DNA of 64,000 bases from Candidatus Dadabacteria bacterium (lineage in GTDB: Bacteria; Desulfobacterota_D; UBA1144; Nemesobacterales; Nemesobacteraceae), in NCBI GenBank assembly GCA_951812945.1, contig CATOTB010000002.1, forward strand, positions 27,238 through 91,237, given 5' to 3'. The position numbers and the translations under genes were made by a program. The notes under the pieces are model-generated. The model made no database searches, had not been told where the DNA came from, and saw nothing but the letters and a program-made list of their open reading frames with translations. Below are positions 906 to 37,794 of this stretch, piece by piece. The number at the start of each line of letters is the position of its first letter. The stretch's first letter is position 1.

Positions 906-1322
906 CTACCATCTATACACCAACTTCATTCCGGTTGCTTCTTTCGCAATAGGTTCTAACCCAAAACCTTGCTCTAACCTTTTGTATGATAAGAGATTGG
1001 AACACACTTCATTATATTTATTTGCCGAACTACGCATATTCATACCCAAACCCATTAAACCGCCTCCAATAACCGCACTTGCAATTCCAACGGTTCTAGG
1101 ATTGTCATATATATCCTCATACGTATCGGGACTGCTTGCCATTACTATTCCACCGGCGGCATTTAGTCCTCCTATTATCATCCAGAACGTACCCCAACCA
1201 GTGCCTTTGGACGGTTCACCTTGGCATTGAGCTAGAGTCGGTTCTGCTGCTTCGACTTCTATTATTCCACTAAAACCAACAACAAAAACAAATACAACAA
1301 GTAAAGATAAAATCCTCCTCAT
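906..1322 (-). CDS. Small secreted/membrane protein with Gly-zipper-like segments (hypothetical)
   Basis: AAGGAGG lies 5 nt upstream of the ATG. N-terminal signal peptide MRRILSLLVVFVFVVGF...VEA-AEP. Gly-rich hydrophobic stretches GGLNAAGGIVMA and VIGGGLMGLGM. The gene sits in an AT-rich patch. Confidence 0.6.
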   Translation of the reverse strand: MRRILSLLVVFVFVVGFSGIIEVEAAEPTLAQCQGEPSKGTGWGTFWMIIGGLNAAGGIVMASSPDTYEDIYDNPRTVGIASAVIGGGLMGLGMNMRSSANKYNEVCSNLLSYKRLEQGFGLEPIAKEATGMKLVYRW

Positions 1323-1504: not shown

Positions 1505-1593
1505 ACTATCGAAACCAAATTTCCTATAACTCCATCCCTTGAACGGGTGTTTTATTCACGGAGACCCGACAGAGGGGGTTCCTTTCAACTAGT
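1505..1593 (-). promoter_or_regulatory. Conserved structured 5' leader RNA, copy 1 (unclassified cis-regulatory RNA candidate)
   Basis: About 65 nt are near-identical to 35260-35320 in the same orientation relative to the downstream gene. Closing stem is ACUA(G)UUGAAA / UUUCGAUAGU. The element starts a few nt downstream of the predicted -10. Confidence 0.45.
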
Positions 1594-1602
1594 TAGATTG
1601 GC

Positions 1603-1629
1603 ATTCTACCCCCCCCCTTTTTTTGTCAA
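1603..1629 (-). promoter_or_regulatory. Sigma70-like promoter TTGACA-15nt-TAGAAT with a homopolymeric A6G9 spacer
   Basis: Read on the minus strand: TTGACA (1624-1629), spacer AAAAAAGGGGGGGGG (1609-1623), TAGAAT (1603-1608). It lies directly upstream of the conserved leader. Confidence 0.5.
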
Positions 1630-33572: not shown

Positions 33573-33767
33573 TTTCTCTATGGAATCCGCATCTCCAACA
33601 CCGACGCTTTCCGCATTTATGTCAAGGTCTGGACTGTGGGAATAACCCCTGTATTCATGAGCGGACGCTTCGGCACCGAATAAGAAACTAACGCCAAGTG
33701 CAAAAACAAACTTAAGAAAATCCCGTGCATTTTAATCTTCACGCTAACTACCTCTCCAATAAATTTT

Positions 33768-33792
33768 GGGAATTACATACATAAATAAAAAA
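33768..33792. repeat. Left terminal inverted repeat GGGAATTACATACATAAATAAAAAA (TSD TAAATTTT at 33760-33767)
   Basis: Exact reverse complement of 36825-36849. Confidence 0.9.
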
Positions 33793-33860
33793 GGAGAATT
33801 AAAACTATATTATGGAATGGATTACATTTCGATTCACAACTAGAAAACTAGTATATATTA

Positions 33861-34127
33861 CTACTGTTGCTGTTTAAGACGATCTATTGCGTCATTTAAA
33901 ATCTTAATTATTGCATTAGGACCTTCTTTTACATAATCATCACTTGGTGTAAGAGCAATCATTGTATCTAAATAATCAAGTTCAGGATCATTATATTCAA
34001 TTACAATTGCGACTTTTATTTCTTTATTTTCAGATAGAGGTTTCACTATCACATTACTAACTGCAATTTGAATCTGCTCCGCTAATTTTCCCGCCTCATC
34101 ATTTGGTCCAGATGGCTTTTTACTCAT
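33861..34127 (-). CDS. Hypothetical 88-aa protein (transposon-borne)
   Basis: AGGAGGAG SD upstream of the ATG. No recognisable family. Oriented outward towards the cache-domain gene. Confidence 0.55.
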   Translation of the reverse strand: MSKKPSGPNDEAGKLAEQIQIAVSNVIVKPLSENKEIKVAIVIEYNDPELDYLDTMIALTPSDDYVKEGPNAIIKILNDAIDRLKQQQ

Positions 34128-34268
34128 TCGACTCCTCCTAAGTTTTTTTAGAATATATCACTCTAGCCAACCTGTTCTTTCTGTCAAACATGTAAACTAA
34201 ACCCCCTCTAACTATTGACTTTTTCGTATTATTAGGTATACTTAGTACCACAATAAACGAGAAGTCAA

Positions 34269-35198
34269 ATGAGTAAAACAACCATAAGTGAATATAGCTT
34301 TCTAGAGAGATTCAACACCGAGGAAAAGGCAGTTGAGTTCTTTGAGATGTTAAGATGGAAAGGGGGAACAACCTGCCCTAGTTGCGGAGGAACTGACACA
34401 TACCCTCACAAGACAAGAAAGTTCTATTACCATTGCCGATCCCCCAAGTGCCGTAACCAATTCTCTTGCAAGACTGGAACTGTTATGCAGTCAAGTAAGC
34501 TCCCTGTCAGAATGTGGCTTTATGCTATGTATAAAGTCAGTATAGCGAGGAAAGGCATAAGCAGTCTCCAGTTAGCAAAGCAACTCGGTATCACTCAAAA
34601 GACTTCTTGGTTTATGATTCAGAGGATTAAAGAGGCTTGCGGGAATGACACCGATACAATGCTTTCCGGCATAGTTGAGATTGACGAAACCTATGTGGGA
34701 GGACTTGAAAGAAACAAGCACGAATCAAAGAAACTCAATGAAGGGCGTGGGGTAGTGGGGAAAGCTCCTGTACTCGGCATAAGGGAAAGAGGGGGGAAGG
34801 TGAAGGTTAAAGTGGTAGAAGACAGGAGAGCAGAAACCCTTAAAAGAGAGATAGCCGGGATAGTTGAAAAAGGCTCTATAGTTTTCACTGATGATTGGAA
34901 GTCCTACAACTGCCTTATTGACTCTGATTATGAACACGCCACTGTAAACCATTCGGCAAAAGAGTTTGTACGCGGGATGGCCTCTACAAACGGAATTGAG
35001 AGTGTTTGGGCCGTGCTTAAAAGAAGTATCATAGGAACCTATCATCACGTAAGCCTGAAACATCTACATCGTTACGTAAATGAGGCTGCCTTCCGTCTTA
35101 ATGAAGGGAATGTCAAGAATAAGCTAATGGACCGGCTAGAGGCCCTTTGCTGCAAGATGGTAGGGGTAACTCTTCCCTATAGAGCATTAACCGCATAA
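34269..35198 (+). CDS. IS1595-family (ISXO2-like) DDE transposase with N-terminal Zn ribbon
   Basis: CPSCGG...YHCRSPKCRNQFS Zn ribbon. EIDETYVGG, FTDDWKSY and NGIESVWAVLKR motifs. TTGACT-16-TATACT promoter at 34215-34242. Confidence 0.9.
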   Translation: MSKTTISEYSFLERFNTEEKAVEFFEMLRWKGGTTCPSCGGTDTYPHKTRKFYYHCRSPKCRNQFSCKTGTVMQSSKLPVRMWLYAMYKVSIARKGISSLQLAKQLGITQKTSWFMIQRIKEACGNDTDTMLSGIVEIDETYVGGLERNKHESKKLNEGRGVVGKAPVLGIRERGGKVKVKVVEDRRAETLKREIAGIVEKGSIVFTDDWKSYNCLIDSDYEHATVNHSAKEFVRGMASTNGIESVWAVLKRSIIGTYHHVSLKHLHRYVNEAAFRLNEGNVKNKLMDRLEALCCKMVGVTLPYRALTA

Positions 35199-35214
35199 CA
35201 GAAGTTCCCTAGTT

Positions 35215-35243
35215 TTTACTTATCCCCCAATCCAAGTTATAAT
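35215..35243 (+). promoter_or_regulatory. Sigma70-like promoter TTTACT-17-TATAAT of the cargo cassette
   Basis: Hexamers at 35215-35220 and 35238-35243. The conserved leader begins about 8 nt downstream. Confidence 0.45.
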
Positions 35244-35251
35244 CTTCTCCG

Positions 35252-35350
35252 CTTATTAGTTGAAACGAACCCGCTATGTCGGGTCTCCGTGAATAAAATA
35301 CCCTTTCTAGGGGAATTAACGGTACGTCCAAACTCGTTTTGACTAATAAG
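35252..35350 (+). promoter_or_regulatory. Conserved structured 5' leader RNA, copy 2 (unclassified cis-regulatory RNA candidate)
   Basis: 15-bp closing stem CUUAUUAGUUGAAAC / GUUUUGACUAAUAAG with two G-U pairs, inner hairpin ACCCG-CUAUGU-CGGGU and CCC-N6-GGG. Homologous to 1505-1593. Confidence 0.5.
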
Positions 35351-35389
35351 CAAGGCCCGACACCCATATAAACCAAAGGGCCAAGGAAA

Positions 35390-36304
35390 ATGCTTGTTAT
35401 GAAAAGGATTTTGTCTTTATTGGCTGTACTGCTTTTTGTTGTTGGTTGTGGAGGGGGAAGCGGGAGTGATTCTAATATCCAATCTACACAAGAGCCCTCG
35501 TGTCCTGAAAATGTGGATGGATTTTCTTATCAGGATCAGAGTTCATGGCAATACGTAGAAGAGCTTTGTGATAACGGTTCCGTAGTTTCATATTCCTGTC
35601 AAAGGGAAAACGGTGGTATTGTCGCTTTTGGGGGTAACTTGGACGGGGTTTGTGAGTATCTACATGAACAGAAAACCAACCCTCAACCTATGGAGAAAAC
35701 AGGATTTGAAGCATGTCCAAGTCCAGATGAATTAACTAAGTTTGTTAATACTTTCGACCCTGTAAACAGATTCGATTCAGCACCCGTTTTAAGTTTTGCC
35801 GATAGTTCCACGGAATATCATAAACAGCTTGCTAGGGAGTCTGTATCGCTTCTAAATAGAGCTTTGCCGGATGAATATGACATTACTGAATCTGGTGTGG
35901 ATGTAGAAGGAAGCGATGGAGGAGCACTACAAGTTCCAGAAGGCGAAATTTACATACAGTTTTTCCCAGAACAACCAAATGTTCCGGTAGGACTCGCTGT
36001 AGGAAGATACATAAGGATTACAGGTGGTGCGGAACATGAGATTGGCAGGAGTTCTGCTTTACGTAAGTCCTATGTTCTTTTTATAGCACACGAGATTATG
36101 CATGTCCTAGGGTTTTCCGGGCACATAGACCTTCCAACTAATTCTATAATGATGGACGGGTTTTATATCATAGACCGTTTTGTAACTGATCGTGAATGGC
36201 CTAGAGAAGAGATACTTTCTGCTGTTGATGTATGGGGGATCAGATATTTCTACGAGGACGCAACAGGAGACCCGGAAGAATGGTTAGAAAACAGGTGTCA
36301 ATGA
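35390..36304 (+). CDS. Secreted lipoprotein with metzincin-type zinc-protease motif
   Basis: Lipobox FVVGC. HEIMHVLGFSGH (HExxHxxGxxH) followed by a possible Met-turn NSIMMDG. By homology to the 906-1322 gene the start may be the second ATG at 35399 (MKRILSLL). Confidence 0.7.
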   Translation: MLVMKRILSLLAVLLFVVGCGGGSGSDSNIQSTQEPSCPENVDGFSYQDQSSWQYVEELCDNGSVVSYSCQRENGGIVAFGGNLDGVCEYLHEQKTNPQPMEKTGFEACPSPDELTKFVNTFDPVNRFDSAPVLSFADSSTEYHKQLARESVSLLNRALPDEYDITESGVDVEGSDGGALQVPEGEIYIQFFPEQPNVPVGLAVGRYIRITGGAEHEIGRSSALRKSYVLFIAHEIMHVLGFSGHIDLPTNSIMMDGFYIIDRFVTDREWPREEILSAVDVWGIRYFYEDATGDPEEWLENRCQ

Positions 36305-36322
36305 TTAACAGGAGGAAACACA

Positions 36323-36457
36323 ATGGGAGTAGAAGTACTATTTTTGGTAATACCCTTAACTGCGTTGGGGGTTCTAGTAGGCTTTACTTGGTTAATAGTA
36401 AATGATTACAAGTCGGGGCATACAAGAAAAAGTGAAAAGTTTTTTAGTGATGATTAA
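36323..36457 (+). CDS. 44-aa single-TM peptide (hypothetical)
   Basis: AGGAGG lies 7 nt upstream. MGVEVLFLVIPLTALGVLVGFTWLIVNDYKSGHTRKSEKFFSDD. Starts 19 nt after the metzincin stop codon. Confidence 0.4.
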   Translation: MGVEVLFLVIPLTALGVLVGFTWLIVNDYKSGHTRKSEKFFSDD

Positions 36458-36472
36458 TAGGAGGAGAAAAAA

Positions 36473-36670
36473 ATGAAAAAAGAACTTACATGCTTGGATG
36501 GGTCAAAAATTGCTTTTCGTCTTCAAGAAGAACCTGATAGCGATGAGTTAATTCTTTATGTCGATGTTTATACAGAGGGTGGGTTAACATCGTCTCCAGT
36601 AGCCACCTCCGAAGCTGAAAAAGAGATTCGAGAGGCAATAATTTCGCTATTTCAAGAATATCCCCGTTAG
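36473..36670 (+). CDS. 65-aa acidic hypothetical protein
   Basis: AGGAGGAG SD upstream. A fully antisense ORF (36486-36710) also has an SD, so the coding strand is uncertain. Confidence 0.4.
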   Translation: MKKELTCLDGSKIAFRLQEEPDSDELILYVDVYTEGGLTSSPVATSEAEKEIREAIISLFQEYPR

Positions 36671-36824
36671 TTTTTTTCGGTTCATTAGATAAAGAAGAAT
36701 TTTTAGTCATTTTTTGCTCCTGTTATAATATGTTATGACAATTCTTGAGGGGTTAGTAAGAGGCTGGGTTTTCAATTGCCCCCAACCTCCTAATGGCGTA
36801 TTTCCTCCGCCAGCTAATCTCTCA

Positions 36825-36849
36825 TTTTTTATTTATGTATGTAATTCCC
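36825..36849. repeat. Right terminal inverted repeat (TSD TAAATTTT at 36850-36857)
   Basis: Exact reverse complement of 33768-33792. Confidence 0.9.
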
Positions 36850-36978
36850 TAAATTTTTTACCGCACTTAAATAACAAATGACGGCCAACAGCCACCTTAT
36901 TAAATCAAAGCTGAAGTTGAAATGCAATAAATACATAGGGGTTTCAAAAAGAGCTATTTATGGCTTAGAATAAGCCTC

Positions 36979-37794
36979 ATGCAGAAGCAGTATGATAAAA
37001 GAATAAGTCCCCTTTCGGGTATAGCAGTTTTTATCTGCTTCTTTCTCCTTATCTTCTCCGTAAGCTACACGACGGAAACCAAGGAGAATCCTCCCGACCG
37101 GACCACATTCAAGGTGCTTAACTCTTTTCCCCACGACCCTACCGCCTTTACTCAGGGATTTGTCTACAGAGACGGGTTCCTTTATGAAAGTACCGGCCTT
37201 TACGGAAAGTCATCTCTTAGGAAAATCAACCCGGCCACGGGAGAGGTGATTGCTAAGACAAGCCTCTCCCGAGAGTTCTTCGGCGAAGGCCTTACCATAC
37301 TGGGCGACAGCATATACCAGCTCACCTGGAAATCCGGACAGGGCTTCATATACGACAAGGAGAACCTGGAGCGCAAGGGATCGTTTACCTACTCCAAAGA
37401 GGGCTGGGGGCTTACCGACGACGGAGCTAGCCTCATAATGAGCGACGGAAGCGAAAAACTGTATTTTCTCTCCCCCGAGAGCTTCAGGGTAACAAAAGTC
37501 TTAAGCGTAAAAGAGGGAGGATCCCCGGTCAGGGGGCTTAACGAACTTGAATACGCAGGGGGAAAAATCTACTGCAACATATGGCATTCAGACGATATCG
37601 TGGTCGTAAACCCGGAGAGCGGTGTGGTGGAAAGACGTATAAGCCTCGGGGAATTAAGAAAAAGACTGAGCCTTCCCGAAAGAGCGGAAGTGTTAAACGG
37701 TATTGCCTGGAAATCTTCCTCCGATACCTTCTTTATCACCGGAAAACGCTGGTCCGAGGTTTTTGAGATAGAGCTTGGCCCCGTCTTCCCTTGA
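36979..37794 (+). CDS. Glutaminyl-peptide cyclotransferase (beta-propeller, plant/bacterial type)
   Basis: FTQGFVYRDGFLYESTGLYGKSSLRKI..., WGLTDDG and LNELEY...IYCNIW are typical of glutamine cyclotransferase. N-terminal TM/signal anchor present. Confidence 0.8.
   Translation: MQKQYDKRISPLSGIAVFICFFLLIFSVSYTTETKENPPDRTTFKVLNSFPHDPTAFTQGFVYRDGFLYESTGLYGKSSLRKINPATGEVIAKTSLSREFFGEGLTILGDSIYQLTWKSGQGFIYDKENLERKGSFTYSKEGWGLTDDGASLIMSDGSEKLYFLSPESFRVTKVLSVKEGGSPVRGLNELEYAGGKIYCNIWHSDDIVVVNPESGVVERRISLGELRKRLSLPERAEVLNGIAWKSSSDTFFITGKRWSEVFEIELGPVFP

Follow-up and report, generated by a model that had tools for sequence, protein, structure and literature searches.

The transposon, its cargo gene and the leader RNA

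The window (the whole stretch of DNA that was analysed, 64,000 nucleotides) contains a complete IS1595-family transposon whose terminal inverted repeats, 33758-33801 and 36815-36859, are about 44 bp long and 91% identical. In order, the transposon holds an 88-aa ORF, a transposase gene (34269-35198), a structured RNA, a gene for a lipoprotein and two small ORFs. The features of this unit are given below, where P1, P2 and P4 denote helices of the predicted fold and the outer, acceptor-like helix is that of the RNA family to which the element is assigned in the next section.

33758-36859: IS1595-family transposon, 3.1 kb, carrying the RNA and the cargo gene, delimited by its terminal inverted repeats
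35215-35243, plus strand: predicted sigma-70-like promoter, TTTACT-17-TATAAT
35252-35268, plus strand: P1 5' arm (CUUAUUAGUUGAAACGA), a putative decoy similar to the cargo gene's start region (from folding and relatives)
35269-35284, plus strand: hairpin P2, ACCCG-CUAUGU-CGGGU, which occupies the 5' strand of the acceptor-like helix (from folding)
35278-35285, plus strand: 5' strand of the outer, acceptor-like helix, GUCGGGUC (from the family model and family covariation)
35287-35322, plus strand: core hairpin, CCGU/ACGG around the internal loop GAAUAAAAUA / GAAUUA and a CCC-UUUCUA-GGG stem-loop
35334-35350, plus strand: P1 3' arm (UCGUUUUGACUAAUAAG), corresponding to the variable, putatively antisense region of the family
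35354-35361, plus strand: 3' strand of the outer helix, GGCCCGAC, with the tail ACCC at 35362-35365 (from the family model)
35378-35387, plus strand: GGGCC (P4, 3' strand) and, immediately after it, the Shine-Dalgarno sequence AAGGA
35393-35408, plus strand: predicted target of the 3' arm, CUUGUUAUGAAAAGGA, spanning the likely true AUG at 35399
35399-36304, plus strand: cargo lipoprotein gene (MKRILSLLAVLLFVVGC..., signal peptide), with AUG 35399 as its likely true start

The cargo lipoprotein contains a zinc-protease-like motif, HEIMHVLGFSGH, followed by SIMM, and as far as the protein sequence can tell, the two look like a metzincin-type zinc-protease motif with its Met-turn. No Pfam family was assigned to the lipoprotein, a weak NCBIfam match to a metalloprotease family falls at the motif, and only 19 homologues were found in 5.8 billion proteins. 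Elsewhere in the transposon, the transposase block (34204-35199) is inverted relative to the homologous units at loci L213-L215, and a 20-nt inverted repeat (34118-34137 / 34259-34278) is 90% complementary. The divergent 88-aa ORF and the transposase gene have a ribosome-binding site and first codons in common (GAGRAGUCRAAUGAGUAAAA), and both proteins start with MSK.

The promoter at 35215-35243, which had been proposed in the first-pass annotation, is the sole sigma-70-like site within 35100-35500, and it places the predicted transcription start at about 35250, at the first bases of the P1 5' arm. No terminator is predicted between the RNA and the cargo gene (35100-35500), and because of this we regard the RNA as the leader of the cargo gene. 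When the 99-mer 35252-35350 was folded, the minimum free energy (MFE) was -31.9 kcal/mol (z -4.7, with 0 of 200 shuffles equal), and the MFE structure was the fold that the first-pass annotation had put forward. The annotation had described a closing stem of 15 bp between 35252-35266 and 35336-35350 with two G-U pairs; these arms do pair, and the G-U pairs are exactly two (U35261-G35341 and G35262-U35340), but the stem is longer than described, P1 being a helix of 17-18 bp (35251/2-35268 with 35334-35351). Hybridized to the 3' region, the 5' arm gives -24.5 kcal (z -5.9, 0/200 shuffles). The inner hairpins were recovered as claimed (ACCCG/CGGGU at 35269-35284, CCGU/ACGG at 35287-90/35319-22, and CCC/GGG at 35301-03/35310-12), as was the downstream GGCCC/GGGCC helix (35354-58/35378-82) directly 5' of AAGGA at 35383-87. 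The proposed strand specificity is also seen in the energies, the opposite strand folding less well (-27.9, z -3.2). In the MFE structure of the full leader, the Shine-Dalgarno sequence AAGGA is itself weakly paired, with codons 4-6 (UUUUGUCUU) as its partner and the AUG in the loop between them (35383-35416), and a weak hairpin of this kind is predicted in several relatives too.

Relation to the sRNA-Xcc1 family

In the Rfam scan of the window RNA no family reached its gathering score, and scans at both gathering and permissive thresholds gave no match to a known riboswitch class. The description of the RNA as unclassified was not upheld: while there is no confident match at the gathering threshold, a permissive search yields one sub-threshold alignment, to sRNA-Xcc1 (RF02221), and the element is a divergent, 5'-extended relative of that family. 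sRNA-Xcc1 is the only sub-threshold Rfam match in the window RNA. The full RF02221 model (positions 1-87) aligns to 35278-35369 with 31.1 bits, below the gathering score of 53. The closing helix of this alignment is not P1 but that formed by GUCGGGUC (35278-85) with GGCCCGAC (35354-61), followed by ACCC, which provides the closing helix of 8-9 bp and the R-CC tail that characterize the family. Inside CCGU/ACGG, the core AAUAAAAUACCC-UUUCUA-GGGGAAU at 35292-35316 matches the family core AAUAMAAYACCC-loop-GGGGAAU, and the internal loop GAAUAAAAUA / GAAUUA of the core hairpin is invariant. The second variable hairpin of the family is absent from the window RNA, where the corresponding segment pairs with the 5' arm instead.

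A scan of public collections for the core pattern identified 89 metagenome loci and, among the matches listed, at least 120 viral or prophage loci. Under the Rfam model their scores range between 74 and 38 bits, forming a continuum toward the score of the window. The basis of a further covariance model (R1) was a set of 17 unrelated phage-type members that included neither the window nor its relatives; these members score about 72-74 bits on the Rfam model where tested, and the alignment used to train R1 has 98.8% of its cells paired and double changes at 11 pairs. R1 matches the window at 35277-35365 with 31.7 bits and a rough E-value of 2.4e-5 in 78 kb, aligning the second-hairpin part with low confidence and with a 24-nt insertion, and it matches all seven relatives described below with 26-33 bits. 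When 101 distinct members were aligned to R1, 97% of cells were paired, all nine pairs of the outer helix (9/9) had double changes, a result that 0 of 500 shuffles matched, and some 20 core nucleotides, located in an asymmetric internal loop, were invariant across these diverse members. Within this known family the element is a new variant, one that masks itself, and both its host group and its kind of mobile element are new for the family.

Some candidates raised along the way were set aside. A P2-type hairpin masking the acceptor-like strand is unsupported as a general feature of the family (mean z -0.29, with only 5% of members below -2). A BLAST search of a phage-type member against GenBank phages returned only 3 matches, all unannotated. 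A weak R1 match at 36980-37042 (minus strand, 12.6 bits, E 1.1) contains AUACCCGAAAGGGGA, the family core consensus, and sits inside the start of a glutaminyl cyclase gene just outside the transposon end; with this E-value and a position inside a coding region, it was treated as chance.

A scan of genomes for the conserved block identified two true relatives of the window RNA, L002 (a Thermodesulfobacteriota MAG) and L003, and five contigs of lipoprotein homologues were fetched, all five of which (5/5) carry the RNA just upstream of the gene. The window clade thus consists of eight sequences, the window and seven relatives on other contigs, with only six independent arm sequences among them. 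The relatives share the transposon unit, with the transposase block in either orientation, and the homologous units of L214 and L215 are bracketed by the same inverted repeats as the window transposon. Pairs in P1 were counted on hand-anchored arms, MAFFT alignments of the arms having misplaced gaps. P1 is perfectly paired in 8/8 sequences, with 15-17 bp, no mismatch and six distinct arm pairs; compensatory changes occur at most positions, and each of the eight sequences has 1-2 G-U pairs. The first-pass annotation had named arms that vary without compensation as one observation that would count against it, and in all eight sequences the arms stay fully paired. The -35/-10 pair is likewise present in 8/8 sequences, with the -10 hexamer ending 7-8 nt before the 5' arm, and given this fixed spacing, the stem starts at the predicted 5' end of the transcript. 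On this comparative evidence, the closing stem is an RNA helix under selection and not a chance or DNA-level repeat.

P4 in L214 is GACCC/GGGUC, a compensatory change, and the sequence of P2 is kept in all eight without covariation. The outer helix changes only from A to G or the reverse opposite U, and the acceptor-like strands and the ACC tail are intact in 8/8.

The first-pass annotation had also described a second copy, at 1505-1593, as preserving the fold, and this claim failed: the fold of that copy is no better than that of shuffles (z +0.4). What remains of the copy is a single feature:

1536-1629, minus strand: degenerate second copy, with a promoter-like site, the 5' arm, P2 and the core hairpin only

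The sequence that it has in common with the window RNA is limited to 56 nt of the 5' half (1536-1591, minus strand, 89% identical), together with 52 nt of the coding-region start (1274-1325). Its 3' half is unrelated to the window RNA, so that it has neither the outer 3' strand nor the antisense arm, and the family covariance model does not detect it. We rejected it as an independent second example of the element because only the 5' half survives. Its promoter-like site, TTGACA-15-TAGAAT (1629-1603), places the -10 hexamer 6 nt before the 5' arm. This site (1603-1629, minus strand) reads TTGAC-A7-G9-TAGAAT, that is, the 15-nt spacer is made of two homopolymer runs, and slippage in the G9 or the A7 run would alter the spacer length. 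Such an arrangement is a classic one for phase variation. A signal peptide (MRRILSLLVVFVFVVG) opens the 138-aa ORF behind the second copy (906-1322, minus strand), and the DNA encoding it matches the beginning of the lipoprotein gene (35399-35447) at 83% identity over 52 nt. Judging from these identities, the start of the coding region was duplicated along with the 5' half of the RNA.

Complementarity to the downstream gene and the proposed mechanism

sRNA-Xcc1 was reportedly first found in integron cassettes of Xanthomonas campestris. It has been described as a trans-acting, virulence-linked sRNA (PMC2996969), and it has been found upstream of symE in Xanthomonas integron cassettes (bioRxiv 10.1101/2025.06.18.660453) and, in the literature on APSE phages, upstream of an ORF6N gene. 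Among the phage-type members collected here, the genes directly behind the RNA encode P22_AR, KilA-N, AntA, Rha, ORF6N or Bro-N antirepressors or the SymE toxin, and the downstream genes of the family also include small hydrophobic peptides and secreted proteins. The lipoprotein of the window, unlike most genes behind family members, is neither an antirepressor nor a known toxin.

Several arrangements within the family were observed in passing. Members with a 5' arm at L004, L005, L021, L039, L047, L084 and similar loci, which are high-GC soil metagenome loci, lie upstream of hydrophobic peptides of 30-45 aa that resemble type I toxins, and at L036, L058, L061, L065 and L193 the RNA lies upstream of signal-peptide or membrane proteins without a Pfam family. 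In some prophage contigs the family RNAs occur in tandem pairs (L030, L098 and L101, with two matches each). At L150 (503-590 and 752-818), a near-threshold c4-2 RNA (38 versus 41 bits) is located directly upstream of an sRNA-Xcc1-like RNA, an arrangement that agrees with the C4 / IsrK / sRNA-Xcc1 clusters reported in Xylella (PMC12189769).

The variable region of the family is complementary to the start of the gene that follows. Against positions -38 to +6 of the next gene, the mean z was -2.36 (n=100 distinct members), whereas a control window taken from within the coding sequence gave +0.28 (paired p = 5e-16), and the complementarity peaks at -25 to -20 and at -16 to -8, the latter being the position of the Shine-Dalgarno sequence. 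The controls were dinucleotide shuffles and the coding-region window; a cross-locus control was dropped as confounded by GC content. The ends of the family RNAs follow a pattern as well, with U at position -1 in 66% of members, G at +1 in 95% and an NCC tail in 64%. U at -1, G at +1 and NCC after the helix are hallmarks of a bacterial RNase P substrate. In the numbering of the family model, U35277 of the window RNA is position -1 and G35278 is position +1, and with A-CC after the helix, its ends are RNase P substrate-like.

For the window itself, the 3' arm is complementary to two partners, the 5' arm and the start region of the cargo gene. Its pairing with the start region at 35393-35408 has an energy of -13.9 kcal (z -3.4, reached by 1 of 300 shuffles). 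Among the relatives, L003 (z -4.8) and L214 (z -3.2) give a comparable result, L216 is marginal (z -1.9), and L213, L215 and L217 give no signal, such that 4/7 relatives, L216 included, are not significant. In a cross matrix of arms and start regions, own-pair energies are best or tied for the window, L003 and L214, and the sequence just 5' of the AUG follows the arm in L003 and L214. The 5' arm CUUAUUAGUUGAAACGA resembles the target CUUGUUAUGAAAAGGA in the manner of a decoy, and the complementarity of the 3' arm to the start region may stem partly from common descent of decoy and target. We also considered the start of the transposase gene as a target of the RNA, and no arm paired with it beyond shuffles in the window, L213, L214, L215 or L216.

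Two sets of helices compete in this leader. P1 and the acceptor-like helix cross, so they must alternate or form a pseudoknot, and the GGCCC of the outer-helix 3' strand has an alternative partner, GGGCC at 35378-35382, with which it forms P4. Under nested folding only, the masked fold with P1, P2 and P4 is the whole-leader MFE in 8/8 sequences. In the window clade the acceptor-like helix may form only as a pseudoknot, or never, because every nested fold in which that helix is enforced is less stable than the masked fold, by 4-16 kcal/mol. Taken together, these results uphold the first-pass annotation in its description of a probably transcribed, strand-specific, structured leader with a conserved promoter and competing conserved helices, but not in its suggestion of a ligand-sensing riboswitch; they favor RNA processing and antisense pairing at the translation start of the following gene over ligand sensing.

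The reading that we favor, and hold with moderate confidence, is that the leader is a divergent, 5'-extended sRNA-Xcc1 member that works on the cargo operon in the manner of c4 RNA and masks itself. Its homology to the family, the covariation of both sets of helices, the conserved promoter, the complementarity and the linkage to the cargo gene are direct observations from the comparisons above; as for RNase P processing, the direction of regulation and the trigger of the switch, we infer the following course of events. In the general design of the family, a tRNA-acceptor-like helix, with U at -1 and G at +1 and followed by NCC, would close a compact RNA, and the variable segment of this RNA would pair with the Shine-Dalgarno sequence or start of the next gene, holding translation down. 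In the window, transcription would begin near 35250, and the 5' decoy arm (35252-35268) would capture the antisense arm (35334-35350) in a 17-bp helix as soon as the latter is made. With P2 and P4 holding the acceptor-like strands apart, this masked fold would leave the lipoprotein start region open to translation. If the RNA refolded, or if it were cut at U35277/G35278 and lost its 5' arm, the acceptor-like helix would form and set the antisense arm free. This arm could then pair with 35393-35408, either in cis or on sister transcripts, and shut translation off.

A more elaborate form of this model, which we regard as doubtful, is a "pro-antisense" design, in which the built-in decoy inactivates the arm until RNase P, a protein or a ligand recognises the core together with the acceptor-like helix. 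If it were true, the core would be a sensor, shared by the window clade and similar 5'-armed members of the soil type, and the whole leader would be a two-state switch that silences cargo on transposons, integrons and prophages.

Other readings of the same data have to be weighed against the self-masked antisense RNA. The three-way-junction core could be the aptamer of a riboswitch or protein-binding switch, with binding selecting either P1/P2/P4 or the acceptor-like helix and thus setting translation. Such a switch would fit the roughly 20 invariant nucleotides in the asymmetric internal loop of 101 diverse members, the mutually exclusive conserved helices, which involve both strands of the closing helix as in an expression platform, and the position of P4 adjoining the Shine-Dalgarno sequence; no known riboswitch class matches. 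However, the controlled genes form no metabolic or transport set, most family members do without the masking helices P1, P2 and P4, and the tRNA-like ends suggest that the core serves folding or processing. Covariation between the variable region and the ribosome-binding site behind it is something that an aptamer has no need of, and we consider this explanation unlikely. The joint change of the 3' arm and the pre-AUG sequence in several lineages also bears on the possibility that the 5'-terminal P1 duplex is an RNase III or stability element, either cut or protective, that sets the half-life of the mRNA, with the likeness to sRNA-Xcc1 being a leftover. That possibility leaves unexplained both this joint change and the acceptor-like strands and ACC tail that are intact in all eight sequences, and at 15-17 bp P1 is short for RNase III. 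It does account for a helix that is long, perfect, conserved in length, located at the predicted +1 and dominant in the MFE of all relatives, yet we judge it quite unlikely.

That the element acts at the level of DNA, as a site where the IS1595 transposon recombines or its transposase binds, or as an integron attC-like site, is brought to mind by its place inside the transposon, beside a transposase block that occurs in either orientation, and by the presence of sRNA-Xcc1 in Xanthomonas integron cassettes (bioRxiv 10.1101/2025.06.18.660453). Nevertheless, every relative has 1-2 G-U pairs, which would be A-C on the other strand, the sense strand outfolds the antisense strand, and the promoter is kept at a fixed distance. 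The true ends of the transposon lie elsewhere (33758-33801 and 36815-36859), no RYYYAAC/GTTRRRY attC core sites were seen by eye at the ends of the arms, and L217 has the RNA without an adjacent transposase. As such, we find a DNA-level role highly improbable.

If the self-masked antisense reading is correct, the window suggests a way for a transposon to bring along a gene for a secreted, protease-like and possibly harmful protein while also supplying the RNA that restrains it, and the masked variant would be a natural example of a decoy-controlled antisense RNA. The implications would extend to sRNA-Xcc1 at large, which many genome annotations list as a trans-acting virulence sRNA and for which we find family-wide, position-specific complementarity to the ribosome-binding site of the next gene, tRNA-like ends and a strong link to prophage antirepressors. 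The family would then be a second large class of c4-like immunity RNAs, unrelated to c4 in sequence, and it would come with a directly testable model, RNase P cleavage followed by antisense block, that applies to hundreds of loci on prophages, integrons and transposons. The searchable open-access literature does not state that sRNA-Xcc1 is a c4-like RNA that blocks ribosome-binding sites and has tRNA-like ends.

Comparison with known systems

The window RNA and sRNA-Xcc1 have in common the invariant core, the closing helix (GYCGGG.../...CCCGRC), the ACC-type tail and a location on mobile DNA directly upstream of a co-oriented gene, which is symE in Xanthomonas and an antirepressor gene elsewhere. 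In contrast to sRNA-Xcc1, the window RNA has a core loop of 6 nt in place of a tetraloop, lacks a self-contained second hairpin, and has a 5' extension of 26 nt with an arm that pairs with the variable region (P1). P2 and P4, additional hairpins of the window RNA, compete for the strands of the closing helix. Its host is Thermodesulfobacteriota-like and not a proteobacterium, and the cargo is a lipoprotein gene in an IS1595 transposon.

The c4 class (Rfam C4, RF01695; phages P1 and P7) includes the CI RNA of P4, the CB RNA of N15 and IsrK/seqA-like partner elements. The phage P1 record annotates promoters, a1/b1, the 77-nt c4 RNA, a2/b2 at the icd start, and then ant. The order is the same here: a promoter, an upstream decoy, a compact RNA that a terminal helix closes and whose antisense bases lie in a loop and a single-stranded stretch, and then a target at the ribosome-binding site of the next gene. 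Further points of likeness are U at -1 and G at +1, and the placement of sRNA-Xcc1 family members upstream of antirepressors. As in c4, an antisense segment is complementary to the start region of the next gene (family-wide p = 5e-16; weak in 3-4/7 relatives), and the antisense arm has a second partner in an upstream decoy that resembles the target, the helix between the two being 17 bp long in the window. According to a passage in PMC4919922 that cites Hartmann 1995, the c4 precursor is cut by RNase P.

The sRNA-Xcc1 family thus appears to work like P1 c4 RNA, by which we mean a likeness in working principle and not membership in that family. The C4, c4-2 and c4-a1b1 models had no match at E<=10 within 35000-35600, and direct homology to P1 c4 was undetectable, with R1 scoring 6 bits on P1 c4. 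The window RNA differs in that its decoy and antisense segments form one continuous 17-bp helix instead of two sites of 7-8 nt, and in that the gene concerned is a transposon lipoprotein gene and not an antirepressor or part of a phage immunity circuit.

A likeness also exists to type I toxin-antitoxin systems such as SymR/SymE, in which an RNA blocks translation of a potentially harmful gene at its start region, and some sRNA-Xcc1 family members precede SymE or small hydrophobic peptides. Unlike SymR, which is encoded as an overlapping antisense gene, the window RNA lies upstream of its gene, on the same strand, and is predicted to be co-transcribed with it.
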